Made by a program: the position numbers and the translations under genes
IMG/VR virus record: IMGVR_UViG_3300037589_000201
Location: 1 to 47,344 of that record
Origin: a virus
Taxonomy: Duplodnaviria > Caudoviricetes
Reading direction: 5' to 3' (one strand)
Length of the DNA: 47,344 nucleotides
Shown: piece after piece, positions 42,742 through 44,524 of the stretch
Position numbering within the stretch: the stretch's first letter is position 1
Layout of the letters: each line of letters starts with the position of its first letter
The notes under the pieces: generated by a model
What the model was told of the DNA's origin: nothing
Database searches by the model: none
Seen by the model: only the letters and a program-made list of their open reading frames with translations

Positions 42742-43344
42742 ATGGCGATGAGAGTTCAAGGACACACAGTGCCGGGACCGTTTGATACGGCAGAGGAGGC
42801 AGCAGAGAGCCTGGCGAGTTTCTTGAGGGGCCTGATGGTGCCTCCTTCCGGGGTCGAACCGGAACTCCCGAAGGAAACGGATTTTGAGTCCGTCGCGTCT
42901 GCCAATTCCGCCAAGGAGGCCCCGGAGGTAAAGACCTCGGGTAACATTCCGCCCCTTATGCACCGGACGCTGGGAGAGATCAAGCTCCCGTTTGGCTGGG
43001 GCCTGGAGGCGAGGTGTGAAACCCTTTGCCGTGACACTGGGGGTGGTATCCACATGCCCACCTTCAGGCCCGAGTACCAGGTCCGCATCACCTGCGGGGC
43101 CACCGTGGACAACATGACGGGCGACCACATGGCAGGCTGGAACGGTCGCTGGTGGCGGCTCTCCAAGCACATGACGGCGGGGGAGATCGTCCAGACGGTC
43201 TTCAAGGCCACCATGACCGCCCTGGAGCACGAGGCTCGGGAGATGTTCCTATACAAGGGAGTACCGGTGCTCGATCCACACTACGACATCGACAAGCTCG
43301 TGGAGTTCCGCCAGGACCCGTCGAGCATCCTGGGGAGGTCTTGA
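42742..43344 (+). CDS. Phage protein whose ORF spans an antisense tRNA
   Basis: AAGGAG RBS; C-terminal GRWWRLSKHMT..EIVQTVFKA...EHEARE.F.YKG..V.DPH resembles a recurrent phage family; true start uncertain. Confidence 0.75.
   Translation: MAMRVQGHTVPGPFDTAEEAAESLASFLRGLMVPPSGVEPELPKETDFESVASANSAKEAPEVKTSGNIPPLMHRTLGEIKLPFGWGLEARCETLCRDTGGGIHMPTFRPEYQVRITCGATVDNMTGDHMAGWNGRWWRLSKHMTAGEIVQTVFKATMTALEHEAREMFLYKGVPVLDPHYDIDKLVEFRQDPSSILGRS
42836..42920 (-). tRNA. tRNA-Leu(CAA), complete, with encoded CCA
   Basis: GCCTCCT/AGGAGGC acceptor stem, GCG/CGC D arm, ACGGA-CTCAAAA-TCCGT anticodon arm, TCC-TTCG-GGA variable arm, TCCGG-TTCGACC-CCGGA T arm, A-CCA end. Confidence 0.96.
42955..42983 (-). promoter_or_regulatory. 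Putative sigma70 promoter of the nested tRNA
   Basis: Minus strand (C)TTGATC-N17-CATAAG, ending about 35 nt before the tRNA 5' end. Confidence 0.5.
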
Positions 43345-43574
43345 TGAACCAACACGTACTGATTGACACCCTCAAACCCTCGGACATCCGAACGGACCAG
43401 GAGGAGTACGAGGCGCTGATCGACACGCTCGACCGTACCCAAAGCACCTCCAAGACCTGCCGGGTACCGGTCGAGGCCCTGAGGAACATCCTCTTCGACC
43501 ACAGCAAGATGTACGGGAGGCTCTTCCCCCAGATGAGCGGAGCCTTCGCAGCAACCTACAAGGAGACCAAGTGA
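43344..43574 (+). CDS. Hypothetical protein
   Basis: GGAGG RBS, TGATG coupling. Confidence 0.7.
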   Translation: MNQHVLIDTLKPSDIRTDQEEYEALIDTLDRTQSTSKTCRVPVEALRNILFDHSKMYGRLFPQMSGAFAATYKETK

Positions 43575-43969
43575 TGAAGAAGATACTGCTGGCCAGTGCA
43601 TTGGCCCTATCGACCCTGCTGGTTGGGTGCAACGATGCGGACATCGCATCCCAGAACCTGTCCACTGCCGCCGACAACTTCCAGATCAACCGCCGTGTGG
43701 TGTTCTACAACGGCATCACCGGGGACTACATCCTGTCCCTTGAGGGTCTGTGCTCTCTGGGGAACTACGACAAGGCCGGACAGCTGACGGTCACATGCAA
43801 GACCGGCCCTGGAGACTACAAGAAGCACTTCCTGGGCCTCTCCGACAACGTGACGTACTTCGCGGAGCAGGTGGAAGGTGCCGCCGTCAGCGCCTACCAC
43901 TACAAGGTGATCTTCAAACCACAGACGATCATCCCCGATGTGGACCTGAAGGTGAAGGTGGGCGGCTGA
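43574..43969 (+). CDS. Phage lipoprotein
   Basis: MKKILLASALALSTLLVG-C lipobox; ADNFQINRRVVFYNGITG, YKKHFLGLSDNVTYF. Confidence 0.88.
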   Translation: MKKILLASALALSTLLVGCNDADIASQNLSTAADNFQINRRVVFYNGITGDYILSLEGLCSLGNYDKAGQLTVTCKTGPGDYKKHFLGLSDNVTYFAEQVEGAAVSAYHYKVIFKPQTIIPDVDLKVKVGG

Positions 43970-44241
43970 TGTTCTCAGGACACCTAAGCCTACTCGGGGC
44001 TATCCTCCAGGCGGCAGCATCGGAGCGAGTTGCAAGGGCATGTGCGCCTATGGGACACACACCAGACCCAGCAGGGGACAAGTTCTTCACGGCCTTGTTC
44101 ACGGCGATACTGATCATCATGCTGGTCTGCGGGACTTACACCCTATACCTCACCGCAGGTCTATGGGTCCTCACGAAGGTCATCGCAGGCATCGGCCTGT
44201 TCGCCACCCTGGTCTGGGTGATCTACGGCCAGCTGGACTGA
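43969..44241 (+). CDS. Small membrane protein
   Basis: TGATG coupling; two TM helices. Confidence 0.7.
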   Translation: MFSGHLSLLGAILQAAASERVARACAPMGHTPDPAGDKFFTALFTAILIIMLVCGTYTLYLTAGLWVLTKVIAGIGLFATLVWVIYGQLD

Positions 44242-44278
44242 CCTTGCGCCAGACAGCGGGTGACACTACCTTGGAGGG

Positions 44279-44404
44279 ATGCGCGAACATATCCAATACT
44301 ACCTCCAAGCGGCCTGGGGCATCATCCTGGGCGTCCTCCAAATACTGGCATTCCTGCTGGTGCTTGTGACGGTCGGACGCCTACTACTGGGGATGCCTCT
44401 GTGA
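44279..44404 (+). CDS. 41-aa membrane peptide (not in ORF track)
   Basis: GGAGG RBS; MREHIQYYLQAAWGIILGVLQILAFLLVLVTVGRLLLGMPL. Confidence 0.55.
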   Translation: MREHIQYYLQAAWGIILGVLQILAFLLVLVTVGRLLLGMPL

Positions 44405-44428
44405 CATTCCCGTGTAATGTGGCACCTT

Positions 44429-44441
44429 TAAGTGCTTGATA
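44429..44441 (-). promoter_or_regulatory. IHF consensus site in the att arm
   Basis: Reverse complement TATCAAGCACTTA matches WATCAANNNNTTR exactly, 30 bp from the att core. Confidence 0.65.
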
Positions 44442-44471
44442 ACGCTACACTCTGACACACCAGGGGGTAGC

Positions 44472-44524
44472 CTCAAAATGCGGTTCCGAAAGGAGTTCCG
44501 GTTCGAGTCCGGAAGGGGGCACCA
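44472..44524 (+). pseudogene. 3' half of tRNA-Leu(CAA): attR-like prophage boundary
   Basis: CTCAAAATGCGGTTCCGAAAGGAGTTCCGGTTCGAGTCCGGAAGGGGGCACCA starts exactly at the anticodon loop; no 5' half upstream. Confidence 0.9.

Follow-up and report, generated by a model that had tools for sequence, protein, structure and literature searches.

Lysogeny that depends on a phage tRNA has been published for the actinophages Fionnbharth (K4), cluster L and Gaia. In these phages, according to the accessible part of PMC10865867, a tyrosine integrase uses a core of about 8-17 bp in a host tRNA gene, the gene is not rebuilt, and the phage carries the cognate tRNA, as is probably the case for the phage described here. 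The same source gives Leu-CAA as the tRNA used by Gaia, and an antisense tRNA overlapping a coding gene in Fionnbharth, both of which also have their counterparts in our phage. Unlike the actinophages, however, our phage, which is known from sequence alone, is T7-like and has a probable alphaproteobacterial host, and its tRNA lies wholly within the N-terminal part of an open reading frame (ORF) rather than over a 3' end.

Among T7-like phages, the pelagiphages HTVC019P, HTVC025P, HTVC119P and HTVC200P leave the host gene broken, and the cognate phage tRNA is "likely used instead" in the wording of the accessible part of 10.1101/410191. They share with our phage the T7-like type, a mid-tRNA core and, probably, an alphaproteobacterial host and a broken host gene, but they integrate at Cys, Leu(TAG) and Leu(TAA), and the HTVC119P integrase is only 26% identical to ours and falls outside its clade. 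A further pelagiphage from the same source, HTVC011P, carries a cognate tRNA and still rebuilds that of its host, so a cognate tRNA alone does not prove a stable break. Prophages of Sinorhizobium meliloti resembling Mesorhizobium phage Lo5R7ANS disrupt a tRNA-Leu gene and bring the same isoacceptor with them (accessible parts of PMC11476347 and PMC12429752). They too are T7-like with rhizobial hosts; however, the tRNA is Leu(UAG). The tRNA of Lo5R7ANS lies on the integrase strand, 20 nt before a TTTAGGT, whereas ours is antisense, and its integrase is 24% identical to ours over 259 aa. The mechanism is already published, and what is new here is the integrase clade, which mostly uses Leu-CAA.

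Very probably, the T7-like prophage studied here splits a host tRNA-Leu(CAA) gene at the anticodon loop, and its own intact copy likely replaces the host gene. The window (the whole stretch of 47,344 nucleotides that was analysed) itself shows the integrase, the intact cognate tRNA and a junction at the loop. In relatives, the left junction was seen to be broken, the attP core was short, and no intact copy but that of the phage was found. With them, tRNA-dependent lysogeny would extend to an unclassified T7-like prophage clade in at least four Hyphomicrobiales families. The relevant features of the window were as follows.

74..2722, + strand: T7-type RNA polymerase (Pfam RNA_pol, E 1.6e-96), start probably at 200
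40622..40990, + strand: HTH regulator, putative repressor (Pfam HTH, phrog_9665), kept directly upstream of the integrase in relatives
40995..42191, + strand: tyrosine integrase (PF00589, phrog_1)
42742..43344, + strand: 200-aa ORF with AAGGAG upstream (phrog_1540)
42836-42920, minus strand: phage tRNA-Leu(CAA), 85 nt, CCA encoded, full cloverleaf (ARAGORN; Rfam tRNA, 53 bits)
42955..42983, minus strand: predicted promoter-like motif TTGATC-N17-CATAAG upstream of the tRNA; a similar motif stands ahead of most of the clade's tRNAs
43574..43969, + strand: small protein, by annotation of the recombination directionality factor family (phrog_478, E 7.5e-55; Pfam Phage_VG64)
44400..44471, + strand: attR phage arm; at 44429-44441, at a distance of 43 nt to the left of the core, it contains an IHF-like site
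44472..44478, + strand: crossover core, the 7-bp anticodon loop CTCAAAA, placed by the loop start of the fragment and the join of the pond-run allele
44472-44524, + strand: host tRNA-Leu(CAA), 3' part, which forms the right end of the prophage; identical to the intact allele in four pond runs
44880..47087, + strand: KAP NTPase, PifA-like, host-side and outside the prophage; named homologues mostly from Hyphomicrobiales/Rhizobiales

The window consists of a T7-like phage genome followed by host-side DNA after 44524. The phage genes lie on one strand and include RNA polymerase, T7-type SSB, endonuclease, primase-helicase, DNA polymerase, capsid, tail and terminase genes; the single-subunit RNA polymerase together with the T7-type replication, capsid, tail and terminase genes places the phage among the T7-like phages (Autographiviridae). 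The closest named polymerases show only about 33-34% identity to that of the window, too little to place the phage in a genus. Counting rightwards from the left junction, itself beyond the window, the polymerase gene is the first large one, and in relatives it stands about 300-970 nt from attL or attP. At the other end, the HTH regulator and the phage-encoded tyrosine integrase lie 2.3 kb ahead of the right junction. The integrase residues R216, K244, R311, H334 and Y343 are present, and the H of the H-x-x-R motif is replaced (A308). The site at 44429-44441 fits, as a relaxed pattern, the IHF consensus, and such a relaxed motif was found at -43 in six of seven attR sites. The small protein encoded between the tRNA and attR (43574-43969) has a lipoprotein-like N-terminus. 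An S-adenosylmethionine lyase-like early gene is located at 36575-37150; such genes are the usual anti-restriction type of T3-like phages.

ARAGORN called a single tRNA in the whole window, the phage tRNA-Leu(CAA). It runs antisense to the phage genes, within the ORF at 42742-43344, an arrangement that the initial annotation did not contain. That annotation had described a boundary fragment at 44472-44524 as a second Leu(CAA) sequence matching the phage tRNA at 44 of 53 nt and beginning exactly at the anticodon loop CTCAAAA, and both points were borne out: the match runs over the 3' 53 nt of the tRNA, and the 5' limit of the fragment is indeed the loop. The mismatches also lay where described, two in the 3' strand of the anticodon stem (TGCGG vs TCCGT), four in the variable arm and two in the T loop, with one further mismatch in the acceptor stem. 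The second-best ungapped 53-nt match to the 3' arm of the tRNA in the window reached only 29/53, which excludes chance for the 44/53 match. Left of 44472, the resemblance to the 5' half of the tRNA fell to 7 of 32 positions. An intact tRNA allele in four pond runs has the sequence of the fragment and departs from the window at exactly 44472, so that the attB site overlaps a host tRNA gene. Taken with the start at the loop and the drop in resemblance upstream, this identifies 44472-44524 as the displaced 3' part of the host gene, with the crossover in the 7-nt loop.

Contig breakpoints in the pond runs bear on the left junction of the window prophage. Pond-run contigs overlap by 30 nt (k-1) at forks, as seen twice at the right junction. 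The intact-allele contig begins exactly 30 nt before the loop end in X1 and X2, indicating a fork after CTCAAAA in these runs, and extends to the tRNA 5' end in X4 and X5. In X1, X2 and X3 the left contig of the prophage stops 349 nt to the left of position 1, and in X4, where no fork follows the loop, it stops at 294. Among the three runs covering both ends, the fork was found in precisely the two whose left contig extends to the shared stop. The allele contig of X2, moreover, is unbroken past CCA, where a rebuilt tRNA should fork. This argument presumes a particular assembly-graph geometry, and X1 is possibly the source sample. On these breakpoints we infer that the window prophage has a broken left junction near -319, which would lie about 519 nt ahead of the polymerase. 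A junction at -319 implies a circle of 44,797 nt, and the contigs of near-identical phages measure 44.6-44.9 kb.

Relatives were sought from an alignment of 30 integrases. Six loci in named genomes, five viral contigs and nine metagenome contigs were obtained, representing 13 distinct phages. In the integrase tree, the integrase of the window groups apart with its own clade, inside which the branching is mostly unresolved. An antisense tRNA-Leu directly follows the integrase in 10 of the 13 distinct relatives (nine CAA, one TAG), and the contigs of two others end too early to show it. The remaining relative (G005, 35% integrase identity) has no tRNA; the repeat at its end, of 10 bp, does not come from a tRNA, and an intact Leu(CAA) persists at another place in its host. 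When 400 family genomes (one unscored) were searched with a profile, only two more distant integrases were added, in G485 and G582. The G485 element is flanked by a complete host Leu(CAG) on one side and by an 18-nt repeat of the 3' end on the other, and is therefore of the restoring type. Neither single-protein scans of viral contigs nor exact-pattern scans of them for the left end of the window and the tRNA 3' arm gave any relatives or matches, respectively. In contig L028 (5215-5500), an integrase and antisense tRNA are followed by host-like DNA lacking a tRNA fragment; possibly, this is a truncated prophage that has retained its tRNA.

Six relatives showed a right junction with a 3' tRNA fragment beginning at the loop, and the left junction was reachable for five of them, in Roseibium sediminis (G001), Nitratireductor sp. 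B36 (G002), Brucella tritici (G003), Taklimakanibacter albus (G004) and an IMG/VR contig (L008/L080). In each of the five, the 5' half of the host gene runs no further than the loop core, and non-tRNA DNA comes next; a rebuilt tRNA was indicated neither by a T loop within 120 nt nor by an ARAGORN call. An RNA polymerase match was present beyond the left junction in four of the five, and the G004 contig stops 94 nt on. Between the split halves of each of the five relatives, the acceptor stem pairs at 7/7 positions and the anticodon stem at 5/5, indicating that the two halves come from one gene. The shared att cores measure 7, 7, 9, 14 and 9 bp. The free-form (joined) contigs L007, L010 and L009 likewise have a loop core of 7-8 nt, and no T-loop motif lies between their tRNA and polymerase. 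In L009 both elements are switched: the tRNA is Leu(TAG), and the core TTTAGGT is the TAG loop. A short core with an unrebuilt tRNA was thus the rule at the five left junctions and in the three attP forms, which have no 3' half, and the rebuilding 3' half of a classical restoring attP was found in none of these eight informative relatives. In the draft assemblies of G001-G004, the phage copy was the sole intact Leu(CAA) found. The Leu(CAA) 5'-half pattern matched 362 of 401 genomes of the order, once in 350 and twice in 12.

Broken Leu(CAA) genes were also seen in other viral contigs. In some of these (L057, L058, L061, L066, L075, L081, L096, L097 and L101), a Leu(CAA) 5' half is broken at the loop and adjoins a distant T7-type polymerase and/or integrase with 25-33% identity; L057/L058 has two broken junctions 1.1 kb apart. 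About a dozen further broken Leu(CAA) halves were present in unrelated viral contigs.

In the sequence of events that we propose, the integrase would recombine the 7-bp anticodon-loop core, the insertion would split the host gene for tRNA-Leu(CAA) without rebuilding it, and the phage tRNA-Leu(CAA) would stand in for the split gene. The phage tRNA would have to be expressed in the lysogen, with the promoter-like motif as a candidate promoter, and the lysogen may gain from it or need it. The initial annotation had proposed such a break with complementation in trans by a copy recoded against integration. The break at the loop and the carriage of a copy with the same anticodon stood, at the left junctions of all five relatives and indirectly, via the breakpoints, for the window prophage; the recoding did not. 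The simplest account of the differences between the phage and host tRNAs is that the phage tRNA is foreign or a paralogue.

The left junction lies outside the window and many tRNA-targeting integrases rebuild the gene, so the prophage might instead restore the host tRNA there and carry its own as cargo or a spare, as HTVC011P does. We consider such restoring integration highly improbable in view of the 3' half missing from all eight informative relatives and the X2 fork, which follows the loop and not CCA. How strictly the phage tRNA is needed is a separate matter. The host gene may be broken and the phage tRNA nevertheless dispensable for survival, with UUG read by Leu(UAA) or a second CAA copy and the tRNA retained because it improves growth or counters tRNA-cutting defences; this reading overlaps with tRNA replacement and differs from it only in the strength of the need. 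A strict need is uncertain because leuX (tRNA-Leu CAA) can be deleted in Salmonella (accessible part of 10.1101/2024.04.04.588050), and the 12 of 362 genomes with two CAA 5' halves also speak for dispensability. So does a non-phage tRNA in pond runs X1, X2 and X5 (over window 42834-42904), which is 4-5 letters from the phage copy and about as deep as the host allele (11.2/11.2, 675.9/680.4 and 78.4/98.5). It is a possible donor or second copy, and if it is a host CAA gene, the phage copy would be redundant in that host. On the other side, the anticodon tracks the attachment core in L009, and G005, whose site is not a tRNA, carries no tRNA. Lytic codon demand was rejected as a reason for keeping the tRNA, since TTG makes up just 40 of 736 Leu codons (5.4%) in 17 phage genes. 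On balance, we regard dispensability as somewhat unlikely.

A phage copy built to resist integration, with an anticodon stem selected to differ from that of the host so that the integrase cannot use the phage tRNA as an attachment site, would fit some of the data. The phage stem is unlike the host stem in all seven phage-host pairs; a C-G pair beside the loop-closing pair is present in 6 of 10 clade Leu(CAA) tRNAs vs 2 of 250 alphaproteobacterial genomes; and in the window the host has this rare C-G type and the phage the other. However, the recoding proposed in the initial annotation is not supported, as the stem is a natural host type found in 16 of the 150 host genes of the order that were listed (of 374 matches). 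Host stems are diverse, two random ones agreeing with a probability of 0.11 and differing in about 89% of cases, so a difference is expected by chance, and seven differences in seven pairs have p of about 0.44 (both tallied by hand over the 150 genes listed out of 374 matches). Furthermore, the mismatches are scattered over the entire 3' half, the C-G pair is unflipped in L001 and L004, and the phage tRNAs share common ancestry and hence are not independent. A possible role of phage tRNAs as attB is raised as speculation in the accessible part of PMC10865867. A literature search at the level of titles and abstract openings, covering few subscription papers, returned no report on integration resistance of a phage tRNA. 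Selection on the stem therefore appears rather doubtful to us. A broader proposal, quite unlikely in our judgement, is that the clade's replacement tRNA and its promoter are locked inside a translated opposite-strand gene, that the anticodon stem is switched against that of the host, barring self-integration, and that the window copy may stem from an anticodon change of another leucine tRNA of the same host.

Replacement of the host tRNA by the phage copy, the reading we prefer, can be approached in cultured lysogens such as Nitratireductor sp. B36 and Roseibium sediminis, in which no tRNA-Leu(CAA) other than the viral one was detected. Natural anticodon switches also occur within the clade (CAA, TAG and probably TAA). 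Together, these make the clade a ready test system for the need for the phage tRNA and for its possible escape from use as an attachment site.

The frame of the ORF at 42742-43344 passes through the antisense tRNA and the promoter-like motif and continues, at the C-terminal end, into a conserved domain of unknown function. Codon-bias scores were weak for its N-terminal part, with -0.12 before the tRNA, 0.11 in the tRNA, 0.01 in the linker and 0.22 in the domain. Of 18 aligned sequences, 15 have the peptide read from the antisense tRNA and the C-terminal domain in one frame, with very different linker lengths and in a search that favours such forms. Read back, four of the antisense peptides imply Leu(TAA). 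The nesting-ORF homologues P0075, P0076 and P0104 (an Agrobacterium-labelled cluster), P0065 and P0067 have an antisense peptide from which tRNA-Leu(TAA) is implied. In three other relatives, the upstream ORF passes through the tRNA and stops soon after, and in five the overlap of ORF and tRNA is not convincing. No antisense tRNA-Leu was found near 32 other viral loci with the C-terminal domain of the ORF, indicating that the nesting is specific to the clade. Of the 11 clade tRNAs, 10 are preceded by a promoter-like TTG-N16-18 motif, which occurs in 11% of random windows, by a rule set after the sequences had been seen, and a strict sigma-70 scan gave no site on the tRNA strand. Between the promoter-like motif and the tRNA 5' end, a short inverted repeat (42921-42941) lies in the predicted leader.

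On the host side of the right junction, the tRNA fragment had no match at E 1e-12 across 401 genomes of the order in a search without a positive control. The KAP NTPase gene (44880-47087) adjoins the T7-like prophage, and its best PADLOC match is PifA (E 1.8e-92). PifA of F aborts T7 infection. Downstream of the tRNA fragment, the stretch at 44526-44690 contains a hairpin, repeated TGTGTACC-like words and IHF-like motifs, and the intact alleles of the pond runs have other DNA beyond 44525. The hairpin and repeats together with the differing flank of the allele suggest that a second, island-like insertion is present at the tRNA 3' end.
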